From positions 142,355-206,354 of the forward strand of contig JABGUJ010000003.1 in the NCBI GenBank assembly GCA_018646625.1: a DNA stretch of 64,000 bases, written 5' to 3'. Below, in pieces: positions 7,586 through 62,000 of the stretch; positions within the stretch are counted from its first letter, which is position 1; every line of letters starts with the position of its first letter. Origin of the DNA: Candidatus Woesearchaeota archaeon (GTDB lineage Archaea; Nanobdellota; Nanobdellia; Woesearchaeales; JABGUJ01). Position numbers and translations under genes: made by a program. The notes beneath the pieces are model-generated. The model saw only the letters and a program-made list of their open reading frames with translations, made no database searches and was not told the DNA's origin.

Positions 7586-7719
7586 TTTCTAGCCACCTCA
7601 TAATTAAAGTTTAATTCACTATATAGTGACTAATAGAGAAACCAGATAATAAAACCATTCACTAGTTTTTTACTCAAAATAACAAAGCTTTTAAATAAAA
7701 CAGAGATATAATAAACAAA

Positions 7720-8691: not shown

Positions 8692-8699
8692 AAGAATAA

Positions 8700-9170: not shown

Positions 9171-9278
9171 AATGGAACATATGTTCCAGATATTATATAA
9201 ATCTACCTATTTTTAGCAATAAACCCCATAACAATCAGAATAATAATATAAAGCAGCAACACCTAGATAATTCCAGGT

Positions 9279-9284
9279 TGGAGG
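9279..9284 (+). promoter_or_regulatory. Shine-Dalgarno (GGAGGT) for asnA
   Basis: ggaggt lies 8 nt upstream of the ATG at 9293. Confidence 0.5.
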
Positions 9285-9292
9285 TAGTAAAA

Positions 9293-10300
9293 ATGAAAAA
9301 ATCAAGTTTACCAAAAGAATACAAAACAGAATTAGGTTATCTAGAGACGCACAAAGCAATCAAACTTGCCAAAGATACATTTGAAAAAAAGCTAGCTGAA
9401 AAGCTAAGCCTGCATAGAGTATCCGCACCAAGATTTATTAGAACCGATAAAGGATTGCAAGATGATCTAGCAGGAACTCAAGTTCCAGTAGGTTTTGACA
9501 TAAAACATACAAAAGAAAGAGTCGAAGTAGTCCATAGTTTAGCAAAATGGAAAAGACACACATTAGGAAGGCACAAGTTCAAACATGGATCTGGAATCTA
9601 CACAGACATGGATGCAATTAGAAAAGATGAAGAACTAAGTCCAATACACAGCATCTACGTAGATCAGTGGGATTGGGAAAGAGTAATTGACAAAAAAGAA
9701 AGACATAGAGAGTTTCTAAAAAGTACAGTAAAGAAAATTTACAAAGCACTATTAGAAACAGAAGAAATCGTATCCACAGAATTTCCAAAATTAGAAAAAA
9801 GATTACCAAAGGACATCAAGTTCCTCCACACAGAAGAGCTTGAAGAACTCTACCCAGAATTAACCCCTAAAGAAAGAGAATATGAAGCTGCAAAAGAACA
9901 CAAAGCATTATTTTTAATAGGAATTGGTCACGCACTAAAATGCGGAGAACCTCACGACTTAAGAGCAGCTGACTATGACGACTGGCACCTATGCGGAGAT
10001 ATAATTGTATGGGACGATACAAGAAAAAAAGAAATAGAATTATCATCAATGGGAATAAGAGTTGATAAAGACGCATTGATTAAACAGCTAGAACTTGTAG
10101 GCCTGGGAGAAAGAAAAGAACTAGAATTCCATAAAGGAATACTAGAAGAAACAACACCACTAACTATAGGAGGAGGAATAGGACAATCAAGGCTATGCAT
10201 GTTATTACTCCATAAAGCCCACATTGGAGAAGTACATTCAAGCGTATGGCCAAAAGAGGTTGAGAAAGAATTTGAAGAAAAAGGAGTAGTAATGCTCTAG
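9293..10300 (+). CDS. asnA: aspartate--ammonia ligase (asparagine synthetase A)
   Basis: VVHSLAKWKRHTLGRHKF and SPIHSIYVDQWDWERVI match conserved AsnA blocks. ATG at 9293 with SD is preferred over the track's TTG at 9278. Confidence 0.85.
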   Translation: MKKSSLPKEYKTELGYLETHKAIKLAKDTFEKKLAEKLSLHRVSAPRFIRTDKGLQDDLAGTQVPVGFDIKHTKERVEVVHSLAKWKRHTLGRHKFKHGSGIYTDMDAIRKDEELSPIHSIYVDQWDWERVIDKKERHREFLKSTVKKIYKALLETEEIVSTEFPKLEKRLPKDIKFLHTEELEELYPELTPKEREYEAAKEHKALFLIGIGHALKCGEPHDLRAADYDDWHLCGDIIVWDDTRKKEIELSSMGIRVDKDALIKQLELVGLGERKELEFHKGILEETTPLTIGGGIGQSRLCMLLLHKAHIGEVHSSVWPKEVEKEFEEKGVVML

Positions 10301-11169
10301 ATTACTATTAGGAAAGCACCTGCAACCATTATCAAACATGCGACGGCTTTCCTAAACAAATTCTTTTCATGAAATAACTCACCACCTATTATCGTAACAA
10401 ACAGCGCAGCCATTCTCTTTATTGCAACAACCAATCCAACATAAGCCATACTAACTGCAACAATCTGAGATAATCTATAAGCAACAGTAAACACAGAAAC
10501 AAGTAATATCCACCAACCATACGTCTTAAGACCTGTCTTCACACCCTTGAGACCATCATGAAACAAAGTCATCATAATGATAAAATGAATAGACAAGAAA
10601 ATATGCACAAAGACAATATACGCTAAAGGATCCATTTCATACCTGACCATAATATATCTATCAACCAAACTACAGACCGCATAAAACAACAAAGCCAATA
10701 AAATGTAATGAATATATTTTGATTTCTTAAACTGCCTTATCGGCTCAAAAAGATCATGATGTCTTTTAGTTTCTAAAACATAAGAACCAACAATCAACAA
10801 AGATATCCCACCAATTTGCAAACCAGTTAATGCCTCACCCAAGAAAATGAAAGCAAACAAAGCAGTTATACCCGGTCCAATAACTAAAAGAGGAGAAGAC
10901 GTGCTCAACTCCATATGTCTAGTACTCTTTGCAACAAGCAAAAAAGCCACAGAACCTAGAATCGCACCAAAAAATAATATAACTAAAGCCTCAAAATGAA
11001 TTGCACTGTAATCAATCACCAACAAAAAAGGTAACGAAACAAGCAGATTTACCACAGCCAAAGTTGCAGAAAACTCCATAGCGTGCGCTTTCAACAAAGT
11101 TTTCTTCTGAATCAACGCAGAACCTGCTGTCAATAAAGCAGTAAGTAAAGCAAATATTAACCAACTCAT
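10297..11169 (-). CDS. EamA/DMT-family (drug/metabolite) transporter, 10 TM
   Basis: 290 aa with two EamA-like halves and hydrophobic helices throughout. Confidence 0.7.
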   Translation of the reverse strand: MSWLIFALLTALLTAGSALIQKKTLLKAHAMEFSATLAVVNLLVSLPFLLVIDYSAIHFEALVILFFGAILGSVAFLLVAKSTRHMELSTSSPLLVIGPGITALFAFIFLGEALTGLQIGGISLLIVGSYVLETKRHHDLFEPIRQFKKSKYIHYILLALLFYAVCSLVDRYIMVRYEMDPLAYIVFVHIFLSIHFIIMMTLFHDGLKGVKTGLKTYGWWILLVSVFTVAYRLSQIVAVSMAYVGLVVAIKRMAALFVTIIGGELFHEKNLFRKAVACLIMVAGAFLIVI

Positions 11170-15253: not shown

Positions 15254-15946
15254 TTACCCAAACAATCCTTTCTTAGGTGGTGGCGGTGGTGGCGGCCCTA
15301 ACGGCGGCATACCTGGTGGAGCACCTGGTCCTCCTGTCGGAGGTGGAGGCATAGGCGGCGGTCCCGGAGGGGGAGCACCCATTCCTGGTGGCGGCGCACC
15401 AAATCCATCATCCGCACCTAGCGGAGGCAGTCCACCCATATCTCCCGGAGGAGGTGGCATTGGCGGAGGTCCACCCGGAGGCGGAGCACCAAAACCTGGT
15501 GGCGGCATTCCCGGTCCACTTGGAGGTGGAGGCGGCATACCTGGCGGCGGAAGAGGTGCAGGCGGAGGTGCAGAAGTTGTTGTAGTTTCTTCTGTTTCCT
15601 CTTCTTCTTTCGAAGAACCTTCTCTTACTAAATCAGCCACAGCCACAATACCTTTTGCAATCTTTTTATTTTGATCAACAACAGCATCTAATTTTTCAAT
15701 CACTTGCTTCAACATCGGTTTCAAATCACCAGATGACGCAGCAGGTGCCTCAGTCTTCATAGTTTTAGCTGCTTCCTTAAACAAATCCAACATAGAATTA
15801 ATTGATAAGTTCAAAGCATTCACACTGTTCAACAAATCGTGACCAGAAGCAGTTCCCGCAAGTGGATTTTTTCTCAAAGCCTCTACTTGCTCTTTCAGCC
15901 TCTCAACCTCTTGTTGAGGTACAAGAGCATAATCATCATCCTTCAT
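15254..15946 (-). CDS. coiled-coil protein with a roughly 100-aa Pro/Gly/Met-rich C-terminal tail
   Basis: N-terminal helical region followed by PPPGMPPPPPSGPGMPPPGFGAPPPGGPPPMPPPP... and ending ...PPPPPPPKKGLFG. Confidence 0.6.
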   Translation of the reverse strand: MKDDDYALVPQQEVERLKEQVEALRKNPLAGTASGHDLLNSVNALNLSINSMLDLFKEAAKTMKTEAPAASSGDLKPMLKQVIEKLDAVVDQNKKIAKGIVAVADLVREGSSKEEEETEETTTTSAPPPAPLPPPGMPPPPPSGPGMPPPGFGAPPPGGPPPMPPPPGDMGGLPPLGADDGFGAPPPGMGAPPPGPPPMPPPPTGGPGAPPGMPPLGPPPPPPPKKGLFG

Positions 15947-28073: not shown

Positions 28074-30206
28074 ATGGATGCAACGATAGGAACAGACATA
28101 ACTTTAGGCAAGAGCGAATGCATATTTCCGCTTGAAAACCTAAAGAAACACTTCATCGCACTAGGTTCAAGTGGATCTGGAAAAACCGTTATGTGTAAAG
28201 TCTTAATCGAGGAAGCAATCTTAAACAACATCCCGGCCATCATCGTAGATCCGCAAGGTGACCTGGCAAGCTTAACACAAATGGATCTTAAAGAAGTAAA
28301 GAAAGTAAAAGACCTAAACACAATAAACAAACTCGAAAGCATAAGAAACGCCAAGATCACAATATTTACTCCAACATCATCCAAAGGAATTCCTTTAAGC
28401 ATCAATCCATTAAAACTTCCAAAAACAAAATTAGATCATGAAGAACTCATAAGCATCATAAATCAGATTGCATCTTCTATATGTAAATTAATAGGATACA
28501 AAGAAGATGATAATGGCAAATCGGCCCAAGCATTACTATATCTAGCACTTAATCATGCATACAAGAAGAAAAAAGATCTAAACACATTCAATAACTTAAT
28601 CAAACTTCTAGACAACTTACCGTGGAGCATAAAACGAGAAGCAAAATCATTCATCAAGATAAAAGACGAATTAACAAGAAAACTAAAATTTCTAACAATA
28701 GGAGAAAAAGAATTGTTGTTCCAATTTGGAGTCCCACTAGATATTGAGATGTTATTAGGGAAAAACAACGATGAAGATACAACCCAAATAAGTATAATAT
28801 ATCTAAACACACTAGAAAATCCTAAAGACAAAGAATTCTTTGTTTCAATACTAGCAACAAACATGTATCAATGGATGTTATCTAACCCTAGCAAAGATCT
28901 TCAAGCACTTTTCTTCATAGACGAAGTCGCACCCTACATTCCTGCAGGTAGTCTAAAGCCAATAACAAAACCAATCCTAAAATTAATATACAAACAAGCA
29001 AGAAAATACGGTGTTGGATGCATAGCCAGCACCCAAAACCCAGGAGATATCGATTACACTTGCTTCTCACAATTTGGAACTTGGGCTATTGGAAGATTAA
29101 CCACAAAACAAGATAAACAAAAAATAAAAGATACTCTCGAGTCGGTAGCCGGCTCAGAGATTAAAGAAATAACTGAAACATTGCCAAAACTAAAGCCAGG
29201 AGAATTTTTCATTTTCTCACCAGATGCATATCAAGAAATTAAAAATGTTAAGGTCAGAAGATTATATACTAAACACATCACATTAACTGAAGAAGATGTT
29301 AAGAAAAACACCACAGATCTTCAAAGATCAGAATACAACATAATCCAACCAATAAGCTTAAGAGAAGACACAGAAGACGATCTTATCGAAGAAATAGAAG
29401 AACCAGAAGAAGAAATTGTACCAGAACCTAAAAAGAAAGGAAAAAGACAAAAAAAGTCAGAAGACTTCTCATTTAACATACTATACTTCCCAATCCAAGT
29501 TCGCGAAGATGAAATAAACGAACTTTCCGAAAAACTTCAGAAAAGGACCTTAATCACAAGAAAACCTACTGAAGAAATTGTTGCAAAGAACCTAAACTTC
29601 GAACCAGTTCTTAGAGCAAGAATCAAAGTAAGAGAAAGAGCAACCCTAGGTTTAAAGAAAGAAACATTAGAATATGTAGTTTTCTTTGACGGTGAAAACG
29701 GCCACCTGCTGAAATTCGATTCTAGAAACAACTTTAAATCATTTCCTGGATTCTCAAGATTAATAAAATACAACAGAGAAAAACTAGAAACGTTCAAAAC
29801 ACTATACGAACGAAAAGAACCATACACACATTCATATTTAGCAAGTCTTGTTAATCTTGATTCAAAGAAAGTTAAGAAACACCTTAAAGAACTACAAAAA
29901 GATGCTCTAGCTCTCTATAACCAACAATACGAAAAGTGGGTTGCAGCAGATAATGTAGTAATTCCTAGCACAATAGGAAAGATCTCATCACCGTCAATAG
30001 TTTTCTCAAGAGAAGACATGAAAGGCAGTATAATAGAATCCACAGTTGATGAGAAAAACCTAAAGAACGTAATAGAGCTCTGGTTTAACAACACAGAGAA
30101 TATAGAAATTGACACAGTTTATTACCCGATATATGAGCTAGTGTATAAATCAAGAAACAACAAACGCTTTGTTAAAATAAGCGCAGTAAATGGGAAGATA
30201 CTCTAA
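28074..30206 (+). CDS. HerA/FtsK-like (DUF87-type) P-loop ATPase with a roughly 300-aa C-terminal extension of unknown function
   Basis: Walker A GSSGSGKT followed by IIVDPQGD, Walker B FFIDEVAPY, and a TQNPGDID motif. There is no HAS-barrel N-terminal to the P-loop. Confidence 0.7.
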   Translation: MDATIGTDITLGKSECIFPLENLKKHFIALGSSGSGKTVMCKVLIEEAILNNIPAIIVDPQGDLASLTQMDLKEVKKVKDLNTINKLESIRNAKITIFTPTSSKGIPLSINPLKLPKTKLDHEELISIINQIASSICKLIGYKEDDNGKSAQALLYLALNHAYKKKKDLNTFNNLIKLLDNLPWSIKREAKSFIKIKDELTRKLKFLTIGEKELLFQFGVPLDIEMLLGKNNDEDTTQISIIYLNTLENPKDKEFFVSILATNMYQWMLSNPSKDLQALFFIDEVAPYIPAGSLKPITKPILKLIYKQARKYGVGCIASTQNPGDIDYTCFSQFGTWAIGRLTTKQDKQKIKDTLESVAGSEIKEITETLPKLKPGEFFIFSPDAYQEIKNVKVRRLYTKHITLTEEDVKKNTTDLQRSEYNIIQPISLREDTEDDLIEEIEEPEEEIVPEPKKKGKRQKKSEDFSFNILYFPIQVREDEINELSEKLQKRTLITRKPTEEIVAKNLNFEPVLRARIKVRERATLGLKKETLEYVVFFDGENGHLLKFDSRNNFKSFPGFSRLIKYNREKLETFKTLYERKEPYTHSYLASLVNLDSKKVKKHLKELQKDALALYNQQYEKWVAADNVVIPSTIGKISSPSIVFSREDMKGSIIESTVDEKNLKNVIELWFNNTENIEIDTVYYPIYELVYKSRNNKRFVKISAVNGKIL

Positions 30207-36056: not shown

Positions 36057-37289
36057 CTAAGCAGCTCTTTCTAAAGCTTGAACATATTCTCGCGGCACTC
36101 CCGCCGCACTCTCCATATACGCAGTACGATCGGCACCCTTAACACCATCTTCAGTTAATTCCTGATACAACTCAGAAACTCGCAACACATCCGCCGCATT
36201 AAAATCCTCACCAGCCATAAGACAAGGACCTAAGTTCCCAAAACCAGAATGGTGAACACCTACAAGACTTCCGATTTGTCGCACTCTAGGCAAGCTTTTG
36301 AAATCACTCAATAATCTTGCACCTCGTTCTGCATGACGATACACATCATGATTTACCCTATCAGAAGGCAAAGTTACATTTTTGCCTACCAATCCAAAAT
36401 CATGTAAACTACACGCCAAGAGAAGAGATTGAACTTCTTCATCAGGTAACCCTATAGATCTCGCCAAACCATAAGCCACCTCAGCAACATTTTCTGAATG
36501 ATTATTAATTTTAGGATCCTCACCAACAATAGCTTTGAGTCCATCTAAAACATGATTCTCAATTCGTTTTGCAGAACAAACAATACCTGCCGCATACGCA
36601 AAAACTTTTGCAATCGCCAAATCATAGTTTGTCACTACACCTGGTGCAGAATGATTTGTATAATTCATCACACCTTCTGATGATATTGCCCCCTCAAAAA
36701 CCGAAACAACAGGTACAACCAAAGATTGTGCAGAATATCTACGACCTTGACGACTTCCTTTCAAAACCTTCATCTCGCCAGAATCATATGCCCTTCGCAT
36801 AGGAGTATTACTACCAGGATTTATTCGCAAATCTACAAACGCCTGAGGAGTATTTTCACCCAAACGAAAAACAAGTTGATCTGCAGAATTCGGAACAAAC
36901 AAAGATGCACTATCTACAGGTATAAATTCCTGTGATGCACTCATTGCCGCTTCCAAAGCACGATCAAGAGTCACAGGTTGATGAAGAAGAGAAAGCACCC
37001 CCTTTAAAGCTTCTTCTTCGCCAGTACCAAAAAGTTTTCTTGCCTGTGCGTCATTAAAATAAGAAGACAAACTCAAAAATCTTCTTTGAAGATCATTAAT
37101 AGATTCACCATAACTAGCAACTAGCCGACCATAAAGTTCTTTAACCTCAATAGGATCTGCTTGTTTAGGTTTACGTGCAGGTTTAGCTTCACCAGTAAAA
37201 AGAGTAGGACCTTGCCCAGATTTACCAAACGACCACACCCTTGCAGCCACATCCAATGCTTTTTCTAATCCACCTTTCATAGTTCTCAC
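36057..37289 (-). CDS. HD-domain (HD-GYP-like) phosphohydrolase with N-terminal sensor-like region (compositionally atypical)
   Basis: LLLACSLHDFGLVGK and HHSGFGN are HD-superfamily metal-ligand blocks. The protein is Ala/Gly/Arg-rich and the DNA is GC-richer than the flanks. Confidence 0.55.
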   Translation of the reverse strand: MRTMKGGLEKALDVAARVWSFGKSGQGPTLFTGEAKPARKPKQADPIEVKELYGRLVASYGESINDLQRRFLSLSSYFNDAQARKLFGTGEEEALKGVLSLLHQPVTLDRALEAAMSASQEFIPVDSASLFVPNSADQLVFRLGENTPQAFVDLRINPGSNTPMRRAYDSGEMKVLKGSRQGRRYSAQSLVVPVVSVFEGAISSEGVMNYTNHSAPGVVTNYDLAIAKVFAYAAGIVCSAKRIENHVLDGLKAIVGEDPKINNHSENVAEVAYGLARSIGLPDEEVQSLLLACSLHDFGLVGKNVTLPSDRVNHDVYRHAERGARLLSDFKSLPRVRQIGSLVGVHHSGFGNLGPCLMAGEDFNAADVLRVSELYQELTEDGVKGADRTAYMESAAGVPREYVQALERAA

Positions 37290-41319: not shown

Positions 41320-42249
41320 ATGCTAAAAAACATAATTAAGATGGGATTGCAATCAATAGAAGAAGTTTTTACGTTCAATAGAGACTATGAAGCAAAAGTT
41401 GCAGAGACAGCAGACCACATAAGAGCACAACTTGGATCTCTCAGACCAGAATTTGGAATAACTCTAGGCTCAGGACTGGGAGACATTGCAGATGCCATAG
41501 AAGATGCAACTACAATCTCATATGCAGACATTCCTAATTTTCTTGTACCAACAGTAGAAGGACACGAAGGTAATCTCATATTTGGAAATCTAGAAGGTAT
41601 TCCTGTAATAGGACTATCTGGAAGAACACATTACTACGAATATGGAGATCTACCATTCAACTATGGTATGTTAAGAACAACGTTCGCAGTTAATGTCTTA
41701 GCAGACTTAGGAATTGCAAACTACTTTGTTACAAACGCCGCAGGCGGTCTAAATCAGAAATTCAAAGTGGGAGATATGATGGTACTACACTCACACATTC
41801 ATAATCAGCCAAACCCATTACTTGGCGAACATAGACAATTCAAAAGAGTGGACAATGGAGAAAGAGTTGAAAGATTCCCACCAGTCAGTCCAACTTACGA
41901 TCCAGAATTAAGAAAAGTACTCCATGCAGCGGGTCAAGAGCACAGAGACCATCTTCACCAAGGAGTTTACATGGGAGTCACAGGACCAACATACGAAGCA
42001 GAAGCAGAAGCAAGATCATTCAGAGATAATGCAGACGCAGTTGGTATGTCAACAACTGGAGAAGTCATAGTAGCCAGAGGAAGAGGAATGAGAGCAGTCG
42101 GTATGTCATGCATAACCAACGAGATCTCGGCATCAGGAGACAATCCTGCAAATCACGACGAGGTTAAAAGAATATTAGAATCACCAGAGGTAAGACAGAG
42201 ATTAACATCAACAGTACAAGAATTCTTCAGACTATACAGAGCTAGTTAA
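41320..42249 (+). CDS. purine nucleoside phosphorylase / MTA phosphorylase family (PNP-I)
   Basis: ITLGSGLG, VTNAAGGLN and GMSTTGEV blocks are typical of trimeric PNP/MTAP. Compositionally GC/Ala/Gly-richer than its neighbours. Confidence 0.8.
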   Translation: MLKNIIKMGLQSIEEVFTFNRDYEAKVAETADHIRAQLGSLRPEFGITLGSGLGDIADAIEDATTISYADIPNFLVPTVEGHEGNLIFGNLEGIPVIGLSGRTHYYEYGDLPFNYGMLRTTFAVNVLADLGIANYFVTNAAGGLNQKFKVGDMMVLHSHIHNQPNPLLGEHRQFKRVDNGERVERFPPVSPTYDPELRKVLHAAGQEHRDHLHQGVYMGVTGPTYEAEAEARSFRDNADAVGMSTTGEVIVARGRGMRAVGMSCITNEISASGDNPANHDEVKRILESPEVRQRLTSTVQEFFRLYRAS

Positions 42250-44182
42250 CAATCTCTACAGCCACCACGTCACTAATATTCCTTATTTTAATCACCAACT
42301 GTTCAGGTTCAAGATTCTCGGGAAGTCTTAAAGCAAATGTAACAGAAACCCTCTCCTTGTGAGTATTGGAGTTAATAGAACAAACACTAATGCCATCTTG
42401 AGAAATCATTCCCAAAATCTCACTTAATATTCCTACCCTATCATCAATCATAGCTCTAATCTTAACTATGCCTTCATCCCCCTTAAGTCTCCAACTAACT
42501 TCAACCTTTTTATTCTCATCTAACGCATGAATATTGGGGCAATCCGCTTTATGCACAGTAACCTTACCATCTTTAGTATAAAATGCAACAATATCATCAC
42601 CATGCACAGGACCACAACACTTAGAAAGCTTCATCTGAGATTTTTTTTTAACATCCGTTTTAATTAAATCTAAGAGTGCTGCCTCAGACATTTCATTATC
42701 ATCCAACTCAGATTTCCTTGCAGCTTTGTGATCATGATCATACTCAATATTCAGTGCTTTCCTAATCTTACTCCTTGATTTACTTGTTTTAATGAACTTC
42801 AACCACTGTCTTGAAGGCGATGCATTATTCTGAGTAACCACATTAACTATATCCCCACTCTGCAACAAAGTATCTAAAGGAACCATCTTACCATTAATCT
42901 CAGTCTTAGAACAATGTAAACCAACATTAGTATGCACTTCAAACGCAAAGTCAACTGGAGTCGATCCTTCAGGCAGAGAAATAGGTGTCCCTTTTGGAGT
43001 GAACACAACAATTTCCTTCTCAAACAAATCAATCTTCAAAGTTTCAATGAAATCTTTTGCATTCGCATCAGATTTCCATTGCAACAGTTGCTTCAACCAT
43101 TCAATCTTTTTATCAAACTTCTTATCTCTTTCAACATTATGGTATCTCCAATGCGCAGCCACACCTTCCTCTGCAAGATGTTCCATATCCTCAGATCTAA
43201 TCTGCACCTCAAGAACCTTTCCATGGTTTCCGACGACTGAGGTATGCAATGACTGATATCCATTAGCTTTAGGAACAGAAACATAATCTTTAAACCTGCC
43301 AGGCATTGGCTTAAACAAATCATGTACAACACCTAATGCGGTATAACATTCTGGAATTGTTTTAACAATTATTCGTATAGCAATTAAATCATAAATTTCA
43401 TTAAAATCTTTACTATCTCTCTTCATCTTACGATAAATACTATAGAAATACTTCGCCCGACCATAAACTTCAGCATCAACATTGTGCTGAGAAAGATTAG
43501 TTTTAATTATATCAATAAATTCAGTTGTAGCGTGCTCTCTCGCACCTCGTTTTGTATCAATATTATTTTTTAATGCCTCATACTCTTTCGGCAGAATAAA
43601 TTTCATACTCAAATCTTCCAATTCCCCTTTGAAAGTAGGTATCCCCAACTTATGCGCAATAGGTGCATAGATATTCATAGTTTCTTCAGCAATAAGTTTC
43701 TGTTTTTCAGGAGATTTAAACTTCAACGTTCTCATGTTATGCAATCTATCTGCCAACTTAACCAACATAACCCTAATATCTTTAGTAGTCGCAAAAAGAA
43801 CTTTTCTCAAATTCTCCGCAGTATAATCATCTCTAGATTCAAAATGAATACTTTCAATCTTAGTTAGCCCTTCAACTAACCCAGCAACCTCTTCACCGAA
43901 CTGTTCTTTTATTTCCTCAATTGAAACATTCGTATCTTCAACAACATCATGAAGCAAAGCCGCACAAATAGTTGCAGAATCAGCATTTAATTGCGTAAGC
44001 AAGCCAGCAACTTGAACAGGATGAAGAAAATAAGGCTCACCGGAAGCTCTTTTCTGCTCTTTATGCATTTCACTTGCAAAATCATAAGCTTCCTCTATCA
44101 ATTTGATATCAGCATTAGGGTTATAACCATTAATAGCCTCTATAAGTTCATTTTTCGGTATTACGCTACCTTCTTTACTCAT
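42242..44182 (-). CDS. bifunctional (p)ppGpp synthetase/hydrolase, long RelA/SpoT homologue (HD - synthetase - TGS - ACT)
   Basis: Hydrolase HD block FLHPVQVAGLL...HDVVEDT. Synthetase block YQSLHTSVVG...EVQIRSEDMEHLAEEGVAAHWRYH. TGS (IVVFTPKGTPISLPEGSTPVDFAFEVH) and C-terminal ACT. Start taken at the internal MSKEGS. Confidence 0.85.
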   Translation of the reverse strand: MSKEGSVIPKNELIEAINGYNPNADIKLIEEAYDFASEMHKEQKRASGEPYFLHPVQVAGLLTQLNADSATICAALLHDVVEDTNVSIEEIKEQFGEEVAGLVEGLTKIESIHFESRDDYTAENLRKVLFATTKDIRVMLVKLADRLHNMRTLKFKSPEKQKLIAEETMNIYAPIAHKLGIPTFKGELEDLSMKFILPKEYEALKNNIDTKRGAREHATTEFIDIIKTNLSQHNVDAEVYGRAKYFYSIYRKMKRDSKDFNEIYDLIAIRIIVKTIPECYTALGVVHDLFKPMPGRFKDYVSVPKANGYQSLHTSVVGNHGKVLEVQIRSEDMEHLAEEGVAAHWRYHNVERDKKFDKKIEWLKQLLQWKSDANAKDFIETLKIDLFEKEIVVFTPKGTPISLPEGSTPVDFAFEVHTNVGLHCSKTEINGKMVPLDTLLQSGDIVNVVTQNNASPSRQWLKFIKTSKSRSKIRKALNIEYDHDHKAARKSELDDNEMSEAALLDLIKTDVKKKSQMKLSKCCGPVHGDDIVAFYTKDGKVTVHKADCPNIHALDENKKVEVSWRLKGDEGIVKIRAMIDDRVGILSEILGMISQDGISVCSINSNTHKERVSVTFALRLPENLEPEQLVIKIRNISDVVAVEIVN

Positions 44183-44259
44183 ATTTCGTGCCTCACATAA
44201 ACAAAGACTAATCACTAAAGTTTAAATATAATATATATAGTTTTTCCTAACCAAAGGCA

Positions 44260-45255
44260 TTGAAAATGATAGTATTAGGTATTGAAAGCACAGCACATAC
44301 ATTCGGAGCTGCAATAATTAAGGACAGAGACGTACTTTCTAATGAGAGAGACCTCTTTACTACAGAAGAAGGCGGAATGAAGCCTTTTGAAGTTGCACAA
44401 CACCATGTTGCATGCTGTGATGAAATCATCAAAAAAGCTTTAGACAAGGCTAACGTATCAATCAAAAATGTTGATCTAATTAGTTATTCTTCTTCTCCAG
44501 GCATTGGACACACATTAAGAATAGGAAACATGGTTGCTAAATCACTACATGCACTACACAACATTCCTTTTGTCGGAGTTAATCATTGCATAGCACATTT
44601 AGAAATTGGTGACATGACTACAGGCTCAAAAGATCCTGTATTACTATACTGCTCCGGCGCAAACACGCAAGTAATCGCATACGATGGTGGAAAGTATAGA
44701 ATTTTCGGAGAAACACTAGATATCGGCATAGGAAATTTCATTGATTCATTCGCCAGATACATTAAACTAGGATTTCCTGGCGGACCAAAGATAGAAAAAC
44801 TAGCTCTAGAAGGAAATAAAGAAGAATTAATTGACTTACCTTACTGTGTTAAAGGAATGGATGTTGTTTTTGGAGGAATATTAACCAATCTGAAAACAAA
44901 ATACAACTCAAAAGAATACAAGGTTGAAGATTTATGTTACTCACTACAAGAAACTGTTTTTGCGATGATGATTGAAACAGCAGAAAGAGCCATGGCACAT
45001 TGCGATAAAAATGAACTTCTTCTAGGTGGAGGAGTCGCATGTAATAAAAGATTACAAGAAATGGCCAGAACAATGTGCGAAGAACGTGGTGCAAAATTGT
45101 TTGTTCCAGAAAACCAGTTTTTAGTTGACAATGCAGCAATGATCGCATGGCAAGGTTTAATTGAATTTCAAGCTGGACGAAAATCTGACGAAGCAGAAAC
45201 TGCAACAATACAACCTTACTTAAGAACAGACGAAGTAGAAGTTCTATGGAGATAA
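44260..45255 (+). CDS. kae1: tRNA N6-adenosine threonylcarbamoyltransferase Kae1
   Basis: MIVLGIESTAHTFGAAII N-terminus and HCIAHLEIG metal-binding block. 331 aa with no fused Bud32. Confidence 0.9.
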   Translation: MKMIVLGIESTAHTFGAAIIKDRDVLSNERDLFTTEEGGMKPFEVAQHHVACCDEIIKKALDKANVSIKNVDLISYSSSPGIGHTLRIGNMVAKSLHALHNIPFVGVNHCIAHLEIGDMTTGSKDPVLLYCSGANTQVIAYDGGKYRIFGETLDIGIGNFIDSFARYIKLGFPGGPKIEKLALEGNKEELIDLPYCVKGMDVVFGGILTNLKTKYNSKEYKVEDLCYSLQETVFAMMIETAERAMAHCDKNELLLGGGVACNKRLQEMARTMCEERGAKLFVPENQFLVDNAAMIAWQGLIEFQAGRKSDEAETATIQPYLRTDEVEVLWR

Positions 45256-48344: not shown

Positions 48345-50237
48345 TTAAATACCGTTAGCTTTCAAAATCTGACGATAGATCTTCTGATTACCTTTCCAGT
48401 CTAATGCTACTTTAAGCACTTCAACTATATTAGTTACCGGAACCAGTTTAATCTTCTTTAAATCATCTTTATCAATCACAATATCAGCCATATTAGATTT
48501 AGGAACAATAACTATCTCAATACCAGCATCAATTGCCGCATCAACTTTAGCACTCACACCACCTACAGGTAAAACTTCTCCTCTAACAGATAAACTACCA
48601 GTCATAGCAATGTTCTGCTTAATTGGAATATTCTTAAAGGCAGAAATAACTGTAGTAGCAATTGCCACCGATGCCGAATCACCTTCAACACCTTCATAAG
48701 TCTGCAAGAACTGAACATAAATATCATATTTTTCTTTAATATCTTCACCAAAGTATTTCTTAATAATTGCAGAAACATTTGTAACCGCTTCTTTAGCAAT
48801 GTCCCCTAATTTACCTGTAGCAATAATATTATTTTCTTTACCACCAGGCGCAACCGCAGATTCAATAGGTAACAATATTCCTGAAAATGCACTTCCACCA
48901 CCAATAACGGCCAATCCATTAACTCTACCAACCTTATGACCTTTAGTAACAATAACTTCATACTCTTTTTTTCGTTCAATATGTTTATCAGCAATTTGCT
49001 GTTCCAATGGTCGAGCAATCTTTTTTGCTTTAATCACATGCTCCTTCTCAACCAACTTAGCATTCATTTCTTTTGCAACATCTCCCGCAGCTCTAACCAA
49101 ACCACCCAGCTCTCTCAATCTAACAGTTAAATGTTTTTTACGATTAGCCATTTTTTGTGCTTGAATAATCATATACTCTACTGCTGCTCGACTGAAATGA
49201 GGAGTTTTTTTGTCTTTATTAACTTCCTGCGCTACAAAAACCGCAATTTTATAACGATTCTCAAGAGTGTCCTTCATAGTTTCATTCATGAAAACTTCAT
49301 AACCATATCCTCTGATTCTAGATCTCAAAGCAGGATGCATATGTTTTATTGTTTCAATATTACCTGCCGCAACCATAACAAAACTACAAGGCACCGGTTC
49401 AGTTCTAACCATTGCACCAGCACTTCTCTCACTCTGACCAGTAATAGAATATTTCCCTTCTTGCAACGCAGTCAGTAACTCTTGTTGAGTATGCGGTTGT
49501 AAAGTTGCAATTTCATCTACAAACAATACACCCATATGCGCTTTATGAATCATTCCTGCAACTACCCTTTCATTCGCAGGCGTACCCAAACCACCAGATT
49601 GAAATGGATCGTGCAAAACATCACCTAACAATGCACCAGCATGAGCACCGGTTGCATCTAAAAACGGAATTTTATCCTTCTTAAAATTATCAACAATGGA
49701 TTTTGGCGCATTTACCTTAGTATTGCTCATCTTCTTACCAAAGTTCAAAAACAGCATGAATCCAACAATAAACACCATGCCAGTTATCATTGACGCAGCA
49801 TAAATAACATCAGAAAACGCTCCAGTTTTCCAAAAATAATAAGGCAATAAAGTCACAGCAACTGCAACAATTATTAAGAAAATAGTTTGATTTTTGAAAC
49901 TTGCCATTGATTGCATTTTAGCATTTGCAACCAGCTCCCTACCTTTACCTGCAGGCACAGATCTTATCAATGGTTGGTTTTCATCATTAGGATTAGGAAA
50001 TGAAACTAAGTCTACTAATTTTTCTTTAGGCAACAAATCTGCAAGAGCCAAACCCAACATACTTTTACCAGTACCAGGTTCACCAATCAACAACACATGC
50101 CTTCTTTGCAATGCAGCTTTTTTAACTATCTCGACTGCAGATTCTTGGCCAATCACTTGCCCAATAATCTTATCTGCAACTTTAATCTGAGAAGTATCCT
50201 TAAACTTGTGCCTACCAAACATACTAAAATAACACAC
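48345..50237 (-). CDS. lonB: archaeal membrane-bound ATP-dependent Lon protease (LonB)
   Basis: Walker [13 protein letters not shown], two TM helices inserted in the AAA+ domain, and a C-terminal Lon proteolytic domain with the Ser-Lys dyad region (MTGSLS...). Confidence 0.9.
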
Positions 50238-50338: not shown

Positions 50339-52156
50339 ATGGTTGCTCAAGACCAAAAAGAGGTGGTCCGTGTAAAAGAGCTACTTTACATCTTCTTAAC
50401 AATATTAATTATCATCGCAATTCTTTTTGGAGTTCTCGTTCTATATGATAAAGCAAGAGATATTTTTCAAGGCTCAGAACAAGAAAACTCAGCGGACAGC
50501 GAAAGTGGAAAAGCATTTCCTGACGAAAAAGCCAAAGAATACTATGACAAAGAAAGCAAAGAAACTTTCTATTATGATGAAAAAAGTGGACTATACTACA
50601 ACAAAGAAGGTAAATCAATAGATATTGAAGACATAAAACAACAGCTTGTAGAAACAGAAGGGGAAGTACTCGGTACGACTACTACTTCAACACCTGGAAC
50701 AACAGATACACCAGGAACTGCTGCCGCTTCAACACTCGGAGCACCTTCTAATCCCGACACACCTGGGACAACGGACACACCAGAAGCAACACCTCCTGGT
50801 CCAGACACACCTGAAACAAGTGATGCGCCAGGCACACACGAAGATCCCCTTCCAGACACTCCAGCTCCTGATGCAGATCCAGAACCCGGAGTATCAGCAG
50901 AAGAAACACCGGATACAGAAACAGAATGCACAGACAGTATAGATAATGATGAAGATGGATTACTCGACACAATAGATGATGATTGTAGAGGCCAATATTG
51001 CGATACAGGAAAAGTATGGATTTGGAGTCACATAGCAGGAGAAGATTACGATACCGCACCTCCTGAAAATGAAGATGAAGAAAGAAGAATTGGGTGTTGT
51101 GAAGTCAATGAATGTATTACAGCATCAGGAACATGTTATCCTTTCGATATGCCACTCAGCCCTGGTTGGATTTGTGGAAGCTTTAACAGATGGAAAGAAT
51201 GTACAAGTTCTAAAATAAACTCAGTAAGCGACGGTGGAGACTATTTGTGTACAGGATCCCAATGGACTTCTTATGAAGATACTGAAACTCAATGTGATGA
51301 TAATTTAGACAATGATAATGATGGCGAAATTGATGAAATAGATTCCGACTGCAGAGGCACGCAATGCAGTAAAACTGGAAAAACTTGGATCTGGAGTTAC
51401 TTACCAGGTCAAAATCAAGATTTACCACCGCCCGCCACAGGAAGCGACAGAAGAATTGGATGTTGCAGTAACGATGAATGTGTAAACATTGATGGAGAAT
51501 GTGTAGATTATGATACAGAATACTCAGACACATACATCTGTGGTAACAACAACAACTGGGACGTTTGTTCAATAAAAACACCAAATAAAGATAGCGACGG
51601 AGGAAGTTTTGTATGTCGAGGCAACCCTGCAAGATGGGGCGTACAAGAACAATTCTTCGAAACAAGCTGCGACGATAACTTTGATAACGATGGAGATGGA
51701 GGAGCAGATGAATACGATGGAGATTGCGTAGGAGAAACATGCGCTCCAGGAAAAGTATGGACTTGGAGTTATCTTTTCAGATACAATCCATCATACAATC
51801 AATGGTGGCAAGACAGCGGAGAAGGAGATTCAGGCACATCTTACCAAATGTCAACCCTCACAAGACATTATTATCCACCACAAGAATCTGGCGGAGACAG
51901 AAGAATAGCATGTTGTGAACCAGATGAATGTGTAAACCTCGATGGTGAGTGCAAACCAGCATTCAGCACATACTTCGACAATCCGTCATGGTTATGTCGA
52001 GACTACTCTAAAGGCAACCATTGGTTCAAATGCGATCTAGGATCAAATACTGAAACATTCGAAGGTCAAAGAGGATCTTTCGATGCAACAGCACACTGTG
52101 TATCAAACACCTGGGGAACAGAAACCGAATGGGAATTTGGACTTGCAATGCCTTAA
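50339..52156 (+). CDS. membrane-anchored extracellular protein with Thr/Pro-rich linker and three tandem Cys/Asp-rich modules of about 120 aa
   Basis: N-terminal TM, (TPGTTDTPGT)n linker, then three repeats of C-[DT]D-x-[IL]DND-x-DG-x-D-x-D-x-DC-x-G...GK-x-W-x-WS...RRI[GA]CC...EC[VI]N-x-DGEC. Confidence 0.6.
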   Translation: MVAQDQKEVVRVKELLYIFLTILIIIAILFGVLVLYDKARDIFQGSEQENSADSESGKAFPDEKAKEYYDKESKETFYYDEKSGLYYNKEGKSIDIEDIKQQLVETEGEVLGTTTTSTPGTTDTPGTAAASTLGAPSNPDTPGTTDTPEATPPGPDTPETSDAPGTHEDPLPDTPAPDADPEPGVSAEETPDTETECTDSIDNDEDGLLDTIDDDCRGQYCDTGKVWIWSHIAGEDYDTAPPENEDEERRIGCCEVNECITASGTCYPFDMPLSPGWICGSFNRWKECTSSKINSVSDGGDYLCTGSQWTSYEDTETQCDDNLDNDNDGEIDEIDSDCRGTQCSKTGKTWIWSYLPGQNQDLPPPATGSDRRIGCCSNDECVNIDGECVDYDTEYSDTYICGNNNNWDVCSIKTPNKDSDGGSFVCRGNPARWGVQEQFFETSCDDNFDNDGDGGADEYDGDCVGETCAPGKVWTWSYLFRYNPSYNQWWQDSGEGDSGTSYQMSTLTRHYYPPQESGGDRRIACCEPDECVNLDGECKPAFSTYFDNPSWLCRDYSKGNHWFKCDLGSNTETFEGQRGSFDATAHCVSNTWGTETEWEFGLAMP

Positions 52157-56077: not shown

Positions 56078-59000
56078 CTACCTACCAACCGCAGCTCTTG
56101 TTTGAGGAGGCGGAGGAGGTGGAGACCCGCCACCTTTGGTTCTTTCCATCTCTTCAATCAACCTATCTATCTGCGAAACATTATCACCAAGATCTTCTCC
56201 AGTTGCTTCAGTAATAACTCTACGATATCTTGAATCTCCCGCACCAACCATGCCATCTAATTTAGGAATCTTACCTATCAAATCATAAAGCGCTAAGTGA
56301 ATCTCTTTCAACTTAGTTGCAGTAACCGCATGTTCAATATTTCCTTTAGCTTCATTTATTAGTCTCCTAACTGATTTCTTAACTCCACCTTTGTTAGATT
56401 TATTAGCCTTAATCAACTGATCAGCAAACACGAGTAATCTATCTTTATAATGGCGCAATCTATCTGCTTTAGCACTTGAATCACGGCCTCTTTTTTTAGA
56501 CCTGGCTTCCCTCTCGAAATCTCTCTCAGTATTTAAAGAATCTTCAGCAGCATTGATATGTTCAATCAGACCAGAAGCCCATTGATCTTCCTGAACCCGC
56601 CTGTTAAGCTCCTCACCTTGAGGAAAACTAGCTAAATGTTCGCGGAGTTTCTGTCGCTCTTTTCTGTAAGCTTCAGCTATCTGGAAAGCCTTTAATTGAT
56701 TTTCATGCCAAAGCTGTGCTTGACTTGCTTCCCATTCAGCAAGTTCATCATCTCTTTCAGGAGCAGCCATAGGTTTTCCGCTATTAGTACCGCTACCGAC
56801 GACAGTTTGTCCTTTGAAATAACCAGGTATTGCACCTATCAAGTCAAAGATCATCATCTTACATTCAACAAAATCTTTGTTTCTTTGAACATTGTCCACT
56901 TTAGCCTTCAACTCATTAAGATGTGAATGCACATCACTCGATGAACACTCACCCTTACCAGGTAATCTCCAACCAGTTGCTTTTCTTCTAACAGCAATAT
57001 CTAAATTCTTTTGTAACTGATCTATCTGAATTCTTAAAAGAGCAGCTTGTCGATTCAAATCCATCTTTCGGTGCGAAGATTTGTTATCAATTTTCTGTCT
57101 TCGATCATCCCTTTCGATATCTCTTACAGATTTAATTGATTCAGGATTTAGTTCAACATCTCGTATATAATCAACAAGATCATCAAGTTTTGCTTCAGCT
57201 TTTGCAAGTGCTTCGAACTCAGCAAAACCATCGTCATGACCTTTTTTATCATCATGCATATGTTTAACTTTCTCTTGTTCTTTTGCGATAGTATCAGCAA
57301 TCTCTCGAGTAATTCTTTGATATTCTTCCCATTCCCAGTTAATTTGATCCCAAACTTCTTTATTCTCTTGAGCAGTCTCGCCTTCTTTAGGTAACTTCAC
57401 CCTCTTAGCAGCACCAGCACCAACAGGAACCTGTCCCTTGAAATAACCAGGTATTAAACAGATTAAATCAAATATCAACAATTTACAGTAAACAAATTGA
57501 GAAGGTTTTGCAACTTTTGGAATAAGAACCTTTAGCTCAGCAAGTTTTTTGTCAATTGCCTTATTATCCATCTTAGCCTTATTTCTTCTAGCCAAGCCAT
57601 AATTCTTAGTCAATTGATCAAATTGAATTTTCAACTGTTCTCTCTGTTGAGAAAAGCGATTATGTCTTTTGCTCTTCTCAATATCATTAGATCTTTGACG
57701 CTTCAGATAAGCTTCTTCTCTCTCAGCCTTTTCAACAGATGCATCCCAGCCAGAAGGTACGTGTCGTTTATCCTCTTCAAATAAACCAGAAGATTCCATC
57801 TCAACCATATGATTGTAAAGTTTCTCTACTTCAAGCATTTTCGAGATTAACTCTCTCAATACTCTTCTAGGGCCTCTCATGTAACCATGTTGAAGTAATC
57901 CAGTATCTTTATCAAACTCCTCATGGAAAAACTTCTCACCTAATTTCCAAAGAGGAAGAGCATAAGCTGAAGTAAACCAATCTTCTTTTAATTTCTGAAC
58001 CCATTTACCATGAACAGGTTCAGAAACACCAGCCACCAAACCAACAATATCATAGTGAATAAAATAATTAGTAATATACGCAGGGTCCTTTCCAATTTTA
58101 CCAGCCATTCCTGATTTAGGATTTTTCAACTCACGAGCATATCTCTCAAAGATTAATTGTAAATGCTTAACAATCCAACCAGCCTCTAAATTAGATTTGA
58201 ACTCAATATTAATTTCTTTCAACAGCTTAGTAAATTTATCATATGCCTTATCAAATTCTTGCACTCTTTCTGGATAAAGTACATCGGCTGCTTGATCGAC
58301 TTCAATTTTAATTGCACGCAGTCTCGACCTCAATGCAGGTTGACCTTCCGAACCCCACATAAGAGCTTGATATCTTACTTGTACTAAAGACAAAGGATAT
58401 CTCTTAACATTATTGTAAAGTAATCCCCAATCATAACTCCAAGCACCACTTACATGATCCGCATGTTTAACAGGGCTTAACTGATAACATGCTTTAATCA
58501 AAGCCATAGCTACATTAATATCTTCTTCAGGTTTCTGCAACAATGCAAGTGCCTGTTCTAATGAATTTACTTCACCTAAATCAATCTTATCTAACTTATC
58601 TATTATGACTATGTGGAAATTTAATTTATCAGCACCTTGTTTACTTTGATCAGACAACTCAATACTATAATTTCCAGGTTCTAACTTAGCCAGTTCTTCA
58701 GGAGTAAAGAATGTATGTTCAAAACTATAAGGAGGTAACTGCCCTTCAAAAGACGAAACAAAATCTCCTGAACCAATATGAGCACTCAGCATACGTGTCT
58801 TCAAGGGCAAATTCTTTGGTGCTTTCAACTCCCACAACACTTTGCTATCAGGAGGGAAACTAGTCATTGCACCTTCAAGAGTTAAACCATCTTTACCCTT
58901 CAACAACAAAAAGGTGTGTTTTTCTCTAAGATCTTTATCTTCAGGTATTGCTTTACCATTTATGGTTAAGATTGTAAGATTATGTTCACCAGCAGTCAAC

Positions 59001-62000
59001 TTAGGCCTATCAGGTATTCTAGGTAACTCTTTTGGTTTAGTTGGACCCGGAGGTAGAATATTCTTAATAGGAGGTGCTTTATCCTGAATAAAACTAGATG
59101 AAAGACGATAAGTAAACGGAGGCATACGAGTTATTACATTTTCTTTAACAGCAATATTAACAACATGATCTGGATGTAACAAGAATCCTTTACCACCATA
59201 CTTTACAGATTTATCTTGAACTGCGATAGAATAATCTCCCGCTTCCAACTCAATAGTCACGTTAAATGGTTGATTATTATCAGAATCAAATGGCGCAAAT
59301 GATTTTAAAGTTGTAACATCACCAGACGCCTTATTAGTCGCAATTAAAGTTACATCAGCAATAGGTATCTGAACCGCAGCATTGTCTTTACCATGCTCAT
59401 AACTACTACTACCTACAACACCAATCAAGTGTCCAGTCTTCTTAGGAACAGGAGCTTCTGATTTTCTAACAAAGTGGAAATTTTTATAGAAAGATAAATC
59501 ATGATACTCTCCTTGCGAAGTGCCATCAGTTTCTTTCAAAGTAAAAGAAGTCGCACCCATAGCATGGAACAATCTCCGTTCATAATCAACTTTAACTCTC
59601 AGAGGATCAAAAGCTAAGATTTTAATTAAATAATTATATTCGGTACCATCAGGAGTCTTAGACCAAGTAGCATTAGGTTGCTGAGAAGCACCTTCTCTCC
59701 ACCTACCAACAGGCGGAACACCACCCACATGTTTCATTAACTTGACTTTAACACCATTATGAGCTAAAGGTTTAATATGACCTTCATCAGTAATAGACAC
59801 TTTACCCCACACAGTCACCATTCTCTGTCTTTCAAACTCAAAGTTAAGAGGATGCATACTTTGTGGTTTCAAATCAATATCTTTATGCTCTCCTTCTTGA
59901 GGCATAATTAGTAAATGTAAATTTTTCTGAGCATCTTCGTAGTATATCTTACCATCAATCTCAACTAACGAACTACTTTCATCAACATTCAACTTAATAG
60001 AATACTTACCAGGCCAAACCTCGTTGAAAACGTAGTTCATATAGTCTTTCCAACCATTCTCGTCAATCAAGTGTTCAGGTACAGGCATACTACCGTCAGT
60101 AGTTTCAGTTGTTCGTACAACCGTGTCTCCTCTGCAAAGATCAAGTTTCAATCCAGGAATTGGAGTTAACTTACCATCACCGCCTTTAATACCAACAGTA
60201 CCAAAAATATGACCTTTAATCGCTTCAAACTCAAAATCAATTGCAAGTTCTTTTGTCGCCTCTTTAAACATCACAGACGCCTTGTCAGGCGTTCCGTGAG
60301 TTAACCTAAACCTATCACTAACCCCAGTATCATATTCAATAACTACTTGCGCATGTTGATCTATTAGATTCCAATAATGTCCTCTTAAATTAAATTCATA
60401 ATTCTCATCACCAACCACCTCAAAATTCATCAGTGGTTCTGTTTCCGCAATAGTTCTATACTTACCACCTTCTTCAAGAACCTCTATACGTAATTTGATA
60501 GTTTTACCTTCCTCGCTACCAAGAGGACTTTGCACGCCTTCTTCATCTATATAGAATACTTTACCATACAATCTCAAAGCGTCAGTTGCATCTAAAGGTA
60601 CAACAACCGTTGCCATTCTAACTGCTTGGAATGCTTTCTTTCTAGCTTGAATATCATCAACTTTTAATTTATCAATCAAAGCCTGTCTTCTACCATCATA
60701 GTTTGCAGTAACACCAATCAGATTACCTGCTTCATCTCTAACATCTTTAAGACCTAATTTAACATTTCCTTCAATTAATCTTACACAATCTTCTCTTACT
60801 AATCTAATAAATGCAATTCTCTTACCTTTGTGCTCAACCACATTACCTGCATCATCAAGAACAGGATCACTCCCACCATTTCTACCATCACTACCATGAG
60901 GATCAGTATGCTTGCCAACTTTCCCGGGATCGTTTGCTCTAAAAGCCCAGATTTCAATATCAACATTAAGAGGCAAATCCTCTAACCTAAATACACCATC
61001 TTTTGTAACACTATCAGCAACAGCATTATTCTCAGCATAAGCTCGAACGTTAACTAGATCGTCTTTTACTAAATCAAAATTAGTAGTATCAAATACAACA
61101 CCTTCAACAATACCCAACAGCTCAGGAACTTCTTGAATAGTAAACGGAACATCTGCAACTTTAGCCATAATAAGACGACCATTATGTCGAGTAGTAATTG
61201 CAAATCTGGCCTTGTACGTTGTTCCAGGCTTAAGTGATCCACCAATTCTTGCAGGAATAAAAATTTTGCAAGGGTCGTTTTGATCAGCCTTCAAAGATAT
61301 TGGCTTACCATTTTTGTCTTTAACATAAACTCCACCTTCATCAAGCAAAAACCAATCTACCCTCTCAGCTAAAGGATAAATATTATCTTTAACATTCTGA
61401 AGAGTTCTTTCTTCTCCATTAATCGTTCCCTTCCACTTCCACTGATTTCTCGTTTGTTCATCAACATATTCGCCGTTCTTAACTGCATTACTCAACTCAG
61501 TGGGATCAGCAGGAGGTTTTATCTTCTGAGGTTTAAGAATATTAATTTTAAGAGGAAACCTAACATAAACATCAATATTATCGTGATCTAAATCAGTTCC
61601 AGAAATTTCAACTACTAACGGATCAGGAGCATTAGGATCATGTCTAGAAGAACCCTCACCACAACCATAAGATCCTTTAACTATAAATCTACCAGCAGGA
61701 ACTTTCTCGAGTTTATATTTACCTTCCTTATCGGCTTTATGACCATCAGATTTTTTGAAGCCTCTTATCTCATGACCGTCCTCATCCTCTAACCAAACAG
61801 TCGACTCAGGCAACGGACGCAACTCGCCTTCTTGATGTAATTCTTCATAAACAGTACCCGCAATAGATCCTTTTCCAACTACTTCATATTCAAAATTAGG
61901 ACCAAACACCGGACGATCTTCTCTAATCAATTCTTTAGTATCAAGTGTAACAACATAAGAATCAGGATCTCTACCCGAAACAGCATGAGGAACATTACCA

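Follow-up and report, generated by a model that had tools for sequence, protein, structure and literature searches.

The DNA analysed here is a 64,000-nucleotide stretch (hereafter, the window) of contig JABGUJ010000003.1 from Candidatus Woesearchaeota archaeon, and its minus strand carries a gene for a long RelA/SpoT homologue (RSH) of the Rel type, flanked by a convergent purine-nucleoside phosphorylase (PNP) gene and a divergent gene for the archaeal t6A synthase Kae1 (Table 1). An earlier note on this DNA had assigned RSH to 42242-44215; the open reading frame (ORF) of that span is real (657 amino acids when counted from GTG 44215), but translation probably begins at ATG 44182, which yields a protein of 646 residues. 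Upstream of this ATG, a GAGG motif is located ~10 nt away and an AT-rich TATA-like box ~45–60 nt away, which, judged from the letters alone, are a putative ribosome-binding motif and a putative promoter element, respectively. Because of the position of the TATA-like box relative to ATG 44182, GTG 44215 would fall outside the transcript. The protein matches the NCBIfam model TIGR00691 (spoT_relA) over its entire length (cutoff, 499.2 bits; score in Table 1), and Pfam detects HD_4, RelA_SpoT, TGS, and ACT_4, each above its gathering cutoff. The HD hydrolase and RelA_SpoT synthetase domains are thus placed in succession on one polypeptide, followed by a C-terminal region with TGS, a zinc-finger (ZFD)/RIS domain with its conserved Cys residues, and ACT/RRM, as expected of long RSHs. 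The identical 646-residue protein has been deposited in NCBI (MBT3406902.1 and others), JGI, and ENA; its NCBI annotation reads bifunctional (p)ppGpp synthetase/hydrolase. The composition of the gene (GC, 0.358; GC at third codon positions (GC3), 0.289; Lys, Asn, and Ile together, 23%) is typical of the neighbouring genes, bearing out the host-like composition noted earlier.

Both active sites of RSH are complete. The HD domain carries R45, H54, H78, D79, E82, D83, D145, and N149, with the HDVVEDT motif spanning residues 78–84, and the synthetase domain carries R242, K244, K252, D265, R270, R296-F-K298-D299, K305, N307, Y309, H313, E325, Q327, and R329, the last of these within the block IRSEDMEHLAEEGVAAHWRY (residues 328–347); the motif and the block are both present, as the earlier note had said. 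We take the corresponding hydrolase sites in RelSeq numbering to be R44, H53, H77, D78, E81, D82, D144, and N148 (Hogg et al. 2004), the synthetase sites to be R241, K243, K251, D264, R269, RxKD, K304, N306, Y308, Q309, H312, E323, Q325, and R327, and the guanine-stacking Tyr309 and RxKD to be the marks of a (p)ppGpp-making bifunctional Rel (Hogg et al. 2004; Sajish et al. 2007). Of the 24 catalytic and substrate-binding positions compared, the window RSH keeps every one intact, and when conservation was scored across 126 archaeal-type homologues, 19 of the 24 were invariant and five varied. The metal-binding and catalytic residues of HD are near-invariant in the clade, and the synthetase has RxKD, not ExDD, both as in bifunctional Rel. 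Since the two sites are complete and conserved throughout the clade, RSH is in all likelihood not a pseudoenzyme, and the degeneracy of catalytic residues that the earlier note had considered is not borne out; RxKD combined with an intact HD site further points to a bifunctional Rel rather than RelA. The enzyme is predicted to make as well as degrade (p)ppGpp.

Structural comparisons agree with this family assignment. Among proteins of solved structure, RSH is homologous in sequence to Bacillus subtilis Rel (PDB ID: 6yxa; E-value, 9e-150; 44% identity by Foldseek), and it also aligns to the Rel proteins of M. smegmatis, S. aureus, S. equisimilis, and T. thermophilus. The order HD–SYNTH–TGS–ZFD/RIS–ACT is the same as in the bifunctional Rel of Bacillota and Actinomycetota, represented by B. 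subtilis Rel (6yxa), S. equisimilis RelSeq (1vj7), and M. smegmatis Rel (8fr8), and the catalytic residues, RxKD, and the TGS residues binding the CCA end are common to RSH and bifunctional bacterial Rel. The AlphaFold2 model, derived from an alignment of 64 clade sequences, is confident (mean predicted local distance difference test (pLDDT), 82.6; predicted template modelling score, 0.77). Its nearest structures are those of RelA on the ribosome, B. subtilis Rel, and full-length SpoT, and over the catalytic half it matches T. thermophilus Rel (6s2u) with a template modelling score of 0.85.

The region between TGS and ACT is considerably shorter than that of bacterial Rel. The earlier note had described the protein as full-length with four recognisable domains; HD, synthetase, TGS, and ACT are indeed all present, but the alpha-helical (AH) linker domain between TGS and the zinc finger is missing. 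The window RSH scored 18.0 bits against PF19296 (RelA_AH_RIS), below the cutoff of 23.8 bits, and matched only its RIS half (profile positions 73–182), whereas Alkalibacillus Rel, used as a control, scored 49.7 bits over positions 3–178. PF19296 is missing from the precomputed annotations of all 120 top-ranking archaeal-type homologues, and in a second search the family was found in all proteins of at least 689 residues and in none of 653 residues or fewer. In an alignment of 126 archaeal-type and 70 bacterial long RSHs, the TGS-to-ACT stretch is ~95 residues in the archaeal type versus ~180 in bacteria, all other domains being equal in length; the ~85 residues are gone in every archaeal-type sequence (126/126). 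The deleted part includes the conserved "DLxAxxGxG" block, while the CC...H...C zinc finger and ACT are kept. The only long low-confidence segment of the model (residues 482–497, pLDDT <50) lies within the remnant of the linker.

The modules on either side of the deletion are well preserved. In the clade alignment, F394-T395-P396 and H417 of TGS are invariant or nearly so, and C522, C523, H544, and C548 of the zinc finger are invariant; the ACT region of the model shows a β-α-β-β-α-β secondary structure. In ribosome-bound E. coli RelA, the equivalent TGS residues, His432 and Phe409–Pro411, hold the CCA end of tRNA, and the helical linker, consisting of five helices, is wrapped around the A-site tRNA at its acceptor arm (PMC5291266). 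Compared with E. coli RelA on the 70S ribosome (5iqr, 5kpv, and 5l3p), of which 5iqr is the top structural match (E-value, 2.6e-41), the window RSH keeps the modules (TGS, ZFD, and ACT) by which RelA touches the CCA end of tRNA, H38/uS19, and uL16, but lacks the linker wrapping the A/R-tRNA acceptor arm; moreover, RelA, whose HD domain is degenerate, acts as a monofunctional synthetase, whereas the HD domain of RSH is intact. The predicted tRNA-sensing and ribosome-anchoring modules are thus kept and the spacer between them is gone.

An exhaustive search of 1.84 billion representatives, which yielded 7154 proteins at E≤1e-30, sorted the TGS-to-CC spacing into three classes: 115–145 residues in typical bacteria, 52–62 residues in the archaeal type (61 in the window RSH), and an intermediate class of 66–89 residues comprising 13 representatives. 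The shortest class shows solely archaeal names and contexts among its named and context-checked members, the subset to which this statement refers because the deep representatives are mostly without complete names. The notion that loss of AH is unique to archaea was rejected, as four Rel proteins of 670–675 residues with a spacing of 67–86 residues (P0277, P0261, P0272, and P0264) are encoded in clearly bacterial loci: P0277 in a SecDF-apt-rel-dtd operon with HU, and, of the other three, one beside flagellar hook genes, one beside bL27, and one beside DnaE and an ECF sigma factor. Shortening of AH has therefore occurred in bacteria too. Each of the four aligns to the window RSH in one stretch, and the two scanned directly match only the RIS half of PF19296. 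The bacterial shortening is, however, milder, and no robust grouping of the intermediates with the archaeal clade was obtained: five intermediate-length bacterial-type proteins placed as its sister by neighbour-joining (NJ) were recovered in only 4 of 100 bootstraps, and this placement was discarded.

The host of the gene is archaeal. Besides Kae1 (TIGR03722), the window encodes an archaeal-type LonB (TIGR00764), a thermosome subunit, Orc1/Cdc6, and an archaeal GluRS, and PNP is on the same 843-kb contig, labelled Candidatus Woesearchaeota archaeon. The GC content is flat along the window. Furthermore, the identical RSH with identical neighbours is found on at least 24 contigs (the longest, 843 kb) from independent assemblies of different samples, in the common order LonB, TrmB, binding protein, NUDIX, Kae1, RSH, PNP, HAD, and Cdc6. 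Because so many independent contigs share the same neighbours, the locus is not a chimera, and contamination or chimerism, which the earlier note had already thought contradicted by the flanking Kae1, LonB, thermosome, and Cdc6 genes, is excluded. In 8 of the 14 archaeal genomes compared, including that of the window, Kae1 is divergently adjacent to RSH or one gene off and/or LonB is nearby; two further loci are too short for a synteny call. This setting differs from the apt-rel-dtd operon of bacteria, the window RSH being instead divergent to Kae1. Between syntenic genome pairs, the identities are 52–64% for RSH, 62–67% for Kae1, and 69–73% for LonB, and the RSH genes of relatives are all in archaeal contexts, where genes for split RNA polymerase B, eIF6, prefoldin, and deoxyhypusine synthase occur nearby.

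Homologues with 52–61% identity to RSH number in the hundreds and, wherever named, belong to Woesearchaeota, Nanoarchaeota, or Nanoarchaeia. In the main tree (110 taxa, 634 columns; all trees are distance-based NJ trees), the archaeal-type sequences are separated from the others in 72 of 100 bootstraps, with a mean distance of 0.60 inside the clade versus 1.03 to bacteria; the bootstrap value falls to 50/100 once deep representatives of 39–49% identity are added. The phylogenetic check suggested earlier thus recovered an archaeal-type clade but found no bacterial donor. A pattern-seeded scan of GTDB species genomes had pointed to Coriobacteriia/Actinomycetota or Bacillota (47–53% identity), a candidacy that was dropped as its sampling is biased by the peptide seeds, and an unbiased search of representatives gave best bacterial matches of 43–47% in Mitsuokella, Ca. 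Fimadaptatus, and metagenome-assembled genomes of Deltaproteobacteria/Pseudomonadota. No donor is claimed, because of this bias and the 4/100 support for a bacterial sister group. Host-like GC3, LonB–Kae1–RSH synteny, and the deep archaeal-type clade together show that RSH is old in the lineage, in line with the earlier suggestion of a gene either ancient or long ameliorated, and one ancient acquisition followed by vertical descent fits the pattern.

Table 1. Coordinates of RSH, its domains, and the adjoining features in the window.
Feature	Position	Strand	Details
Purine-nucleoside phosphorylase (PunA type)	41320..42249	+	NF006054, 264 bits; convergent with RSH
Long RSH (Rel-type) coding sequence	42242..44182	-	646 amino acids plus stop; TIGR00691, 699.7 bits
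ACT/RRM domain	42254..42466	-	Residues 573-643; Pfam ACT_4, 1.9e-08
Zinc-finger/RIS domain	42488..42634	-	Residues 517-565; precomputed PF28438 (RelA_RIS)
AH linker remnant	42635..42832	-	Residues 451-516; one conserved helix after TGS, then a low-confidence stretch
TGS domain	42833..43012	-	Residues 391-450; Pfam TGS, 6.5e-16
Synthetase (RelA_SpoT) domain	43136..43462	-	Residues 241-349; Pfam PF04607, 9e-41
HD (p)ppGpp hydrolase domain	43640..44089	-	Residues 32-181; Pfam HD_4, 1e-50
RSH–Kae1 divergent intergenic region	44183..44259	.	Putative TATA-like box and GAGG ribosome-binding motif for RSH
Kae1 (archaeal t6A synthase, standalone)	44260..45255	+	TIGR03722 (arch_KAE1), 428.8 bits; divergent from RSH

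RSH and PNP overlap tail to tail by exactly the 8 nt reported earlier, the stop codon TAG of RSH occupying 42244-42242 and the stop codon TAA of PNP 42247-42249. The further remark that PNP looks foreign did not stand: although the protein is above average in Gly, Ala, Arg, and Pro, its gene has a host-like GC3 (0.268), and its relatives at 50–62% identity are from Woesearchaeota/Nanoarchaeota. PNP is not detectably more foreign than RSH. The adjacency of the two genes is limited to contigs with the identical RSH protein, and PNP is not beside RSH at five loci of relatives (L084 and L086-L089). A functional link through conserved adjacency was accordingly rejected, and no functional coupling is inferred.

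Taking as established the domain content, the intact residues and their conservation across the clade, the archaeal context, the age of the gene, and the loss of AH, we infer the activity, trigger, and targets of RSH as follows. It is probable, and the interpretation we hold with good confidence, that RSH is a competent bifunctional Rel-type enzyme, descended vertically from an ancient bacterial transfer, which has lost AH and has likely kept its switching. The HD domain would hydrolyse (p)ppGpp to GDP/GTP and PPi, and the synthetase would move pyrophosphate from ATP onto the 3'-OH of GDP/GTP. The archaeal-type clade of Woesearchaeota/Nanoarchaeota (members of DPANN) would have arisen from the transferred bacterial Rel and have been inherited since within the LonB–Kae1–RSH block, at some point losing the five-helix linker that in bacterial RelA spaces TGS from ZFD and ACT. 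Most likely, the C-terminal domains switch the enzyme between its hydrolase-on and synthetase-on states upon a starvation cue, the strongest candidate for which is uncharged tRNA. Activation by a deacylated A-site tRNA is uncertain, the CCA contacts of TGS being retained but AH being absent and the ribosome archaeal. Because the spacer is missing and the ribosome is of the archaeal type, docking would have to differ from that in bacteria, or control would be independent of the ribosome. Different from bacterial Rel, the enzyme also meets an archaeal RNA polymerase; by analogy, the product would act on universally conserved GTP/GDP-binding targets such as translational GTPases and on purine-salvage enzymes, which are likely targets rather than a bacterial-type RNA polymerase.

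Several points weigh against this interpretation. Our view of the genome is confined to the 64-kb window; the monophyly of the clade has moderate to weak bootstrap support, by NJ only and declining with the deep members; the loss of AH may block docking of the bacterial style, which would make activation by uncharged tRNA uncertain; and the literature searched offered neither biochemistry nor physiology on archaeal long RSHs.

A broader proposal is that the long RSHs of DPANN constitute a native archaeal alarmone system, widespread and vertically inherited, that has shed AH and uses (p)ppGpp to throttle translation GTPases and purine salvage in symbionts dependent on external nutrients. Here, AH may have been shed in adapting to the archaeal ribosome or in shifting to control independent of the ribosome. 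We regard this proposal as tentative and on balance doubtful. If true, it would overturn the current view of reviews that (p)ppGpp has no role in archaea, and long RSHs would gain a new regulatory class, one without AH. Model archaea produce no (p)ppGpp, and a 2023 review judges the alarmone unimportant in the domain.

The presence of RSH in such genomes is already known from the NCBI annotation and from Li et al. 2021 (mSystems, PMC8407392), who found RelA/SpoT genes at frequencies of 69% in Diapherotrites, 41.7% in Woesearchaeota, 21.3% in Pacearchaeota, and 19% in Nanoarchaeota and predicted that the DPANN genes came from Bacteria. Their genes are of the same family and from the same archaeal groups as ours; the paper devotes one presence/absence sentence and a supplementary tree to them, and its accessible text contains no analysis of catalytic residues, domain loss, or synteny. 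With 41.7% of Woesearchaeota and hundreds of homologues in Woesearchaeota/Nanoarchaeota, the earlier statement that long RSHs are rare in archaea fails here, while holding for cultured archaea. Atkinson et al. 2011 did not find long RSHs in archaea (PMC3153485), archaeal long RSHs are not discussed in the main text of Jimmy et al. 2020, and no biochemical, structural, or domain-level analysis of them was found in the literature searched. Apparently undescribed in that literature are the clade-wide loss of AH, the fact that both active sites are conserved, and the LonB–Kae1–RSH synteny. The value of the locus is in follow-up, not in gene discovery. The question whether archaea have a stringent response dates back to the 1990s, and a large, catalytically intact DPANN clade under clear purifying selection provides a concrete and clonable candidate for archaeal alarmone signalling; the consistent loss of AH also amounts to a natural experiment on the coupling of tRNA/ribosome sensing to catalysis by the C-terminal domains of Rel.

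Other explanations differ from the bifunctional Rel in what the enzyme does. It could be mainly a SpoT-like hydrolase or scavenger, with which a symbiont lacking de novo purine synthesis would degrade (p)ppGpp taken from, or made around, bacterial partners and feed the GDP/GTP into salvage together with the nearby PNP, NUDIX, and HAD hydrolases, the synthetase being weak or vestigial. The fully intact hydrolase site suits such a role, as do the PNP, NUDIX, and HAD hydrolase genes of the window, no farther than 3 kb away, and the HAD hydrolase gene convergent with RSH at locus L084; the loss of AH could likewise uncouple the protein from ribosomal activation, and de novo nucleotide synthesis is absent in many DPANN, according to Li et al. 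2021 (PMC8407392). However, the synthetase residues (D265, E325, R242, K244, K252, Y309, H313, and others) are near-invariant in the 126 sequences, which argues for selection on synthesis, and the adjacency to PNP is not conserved outside the contigs with the identical RSH. Moreover, we know of no uptake route for ppGpp, and on these grounds the scavenger is unlikely. Still less is to be said for a pseudoenzyme or repurposed protein, either a tRNA- or ribosome-binding regulator without nucleotide chemistry or a maker of a (pp)pApp-like nucleotide: the loss of AH does alter the regulatory architecture, and the archaea tested so far have yielded no alarmone, but both active sites are complete, and Tyr309 and RxKD are as in bifunctional Rel that makes (p)ppGpp, so that we consider this role scarcely credible.

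The remaining explanations concern the history of the gene rather than its activity. That long RSH is ancestral to the archaeal line, or passed from DPANN to bacteria instead of the reverse, is in keeping with the depth of the clade, in which the divergence (down to 39–49% identity) approaches the distance to bacteria, and with the failure to identify a donor lineage. Yet long RSHs are near-universal in bacteria and absent from the surveyed archaea outside DPANN (PMC3153485), the archaeal type is a single AH-deleted form amid the much larger bacterial diversity of the 7154 representatives, and Li et al. 2021 favour a bacterial origin (PMC8407392); an archaeal origin is thus highly improbable. 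A recent horizontal gain, or an artefact of bacterial binning or assembly, would be suggested by the overwhelmingly bacterial distribution of the family and by bacterial relatives that still reach 43–53% identity. Against it stand the same archaeal neighbours on the independent contigs, GC and GC3 values equal to the window average, the synteny with Kae1/LonB kept across relatives, and a distinct clade with a common domain loss, by which this explanation is effectively refuted already.

Several minor observations were made on the genes of the syntenic block. Kae1 of the window has no fusion to the Bud32 kinase, covering only positions 1–326 of the 535-position bifunctional model. The LonB–Kae1–RSH block, which in the window includes Kae1 and the minus-strand gene at 48345..50237, was noted at loci L002, L003, L078, L084, L087, and L088. 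At L087, LonB beside RSH is called as two genes (7080..10522), the upstream one having a weak intein-splicing match (PF14890), and this LonB may be intein-containing or split. L002 (CAYNHV010000045.1) and L003 (CAZRZZ010000024.1) are titled 'uncultured Methanosarcinales archaeon' and carry a Woesearchaeota-type RSH; their RSH, Kae1, and LonB are 57–69% identical to the window proteins, and the Methanosarcinales label may be wrong.

Elsewhere in the window, a 410-residue protein with a C-terminal HD domain (PF01966) is encoded at 36057..37289 on the minus strand (GC, 0.41), with a weak match to a NosR-family c-di-GMP phosphodiesterase model. Its gene adjoins Orc1/Cdc6 at ~5 kb from RSH, is also present on other contigs with the identical RSH, and could encode another nucleotide-signal hydrolase. 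The minus-strand ORF of 230 residues at 15254..15946 has a GC content of 0.51, compared with a window average of ~0.36; its N-terminal part looks helical, and its C-terminal 100 residues are extremely rich in Pro and Gly (PPPP runs, 'GMPPPPP'), resembling the proline-rich regions of the formin FH1 or WASP type, with no Pfam match. An ORF of 2624 residues at 56078..63952 on the minus strand, in which no Pfam family was detected at E≤0.001, may be a large surface protein of the type common in DPANN genomes. On the plus strand, a 605-residue protein with acidic double-disulfide repeats (NF033662) is encoded at 50339..52156 (GC, 0.416), and a 710-residue HerA/VirB4/CedD-like ATPase with matches to DUF87, HerA_C, and TrwB at 28074..30206.

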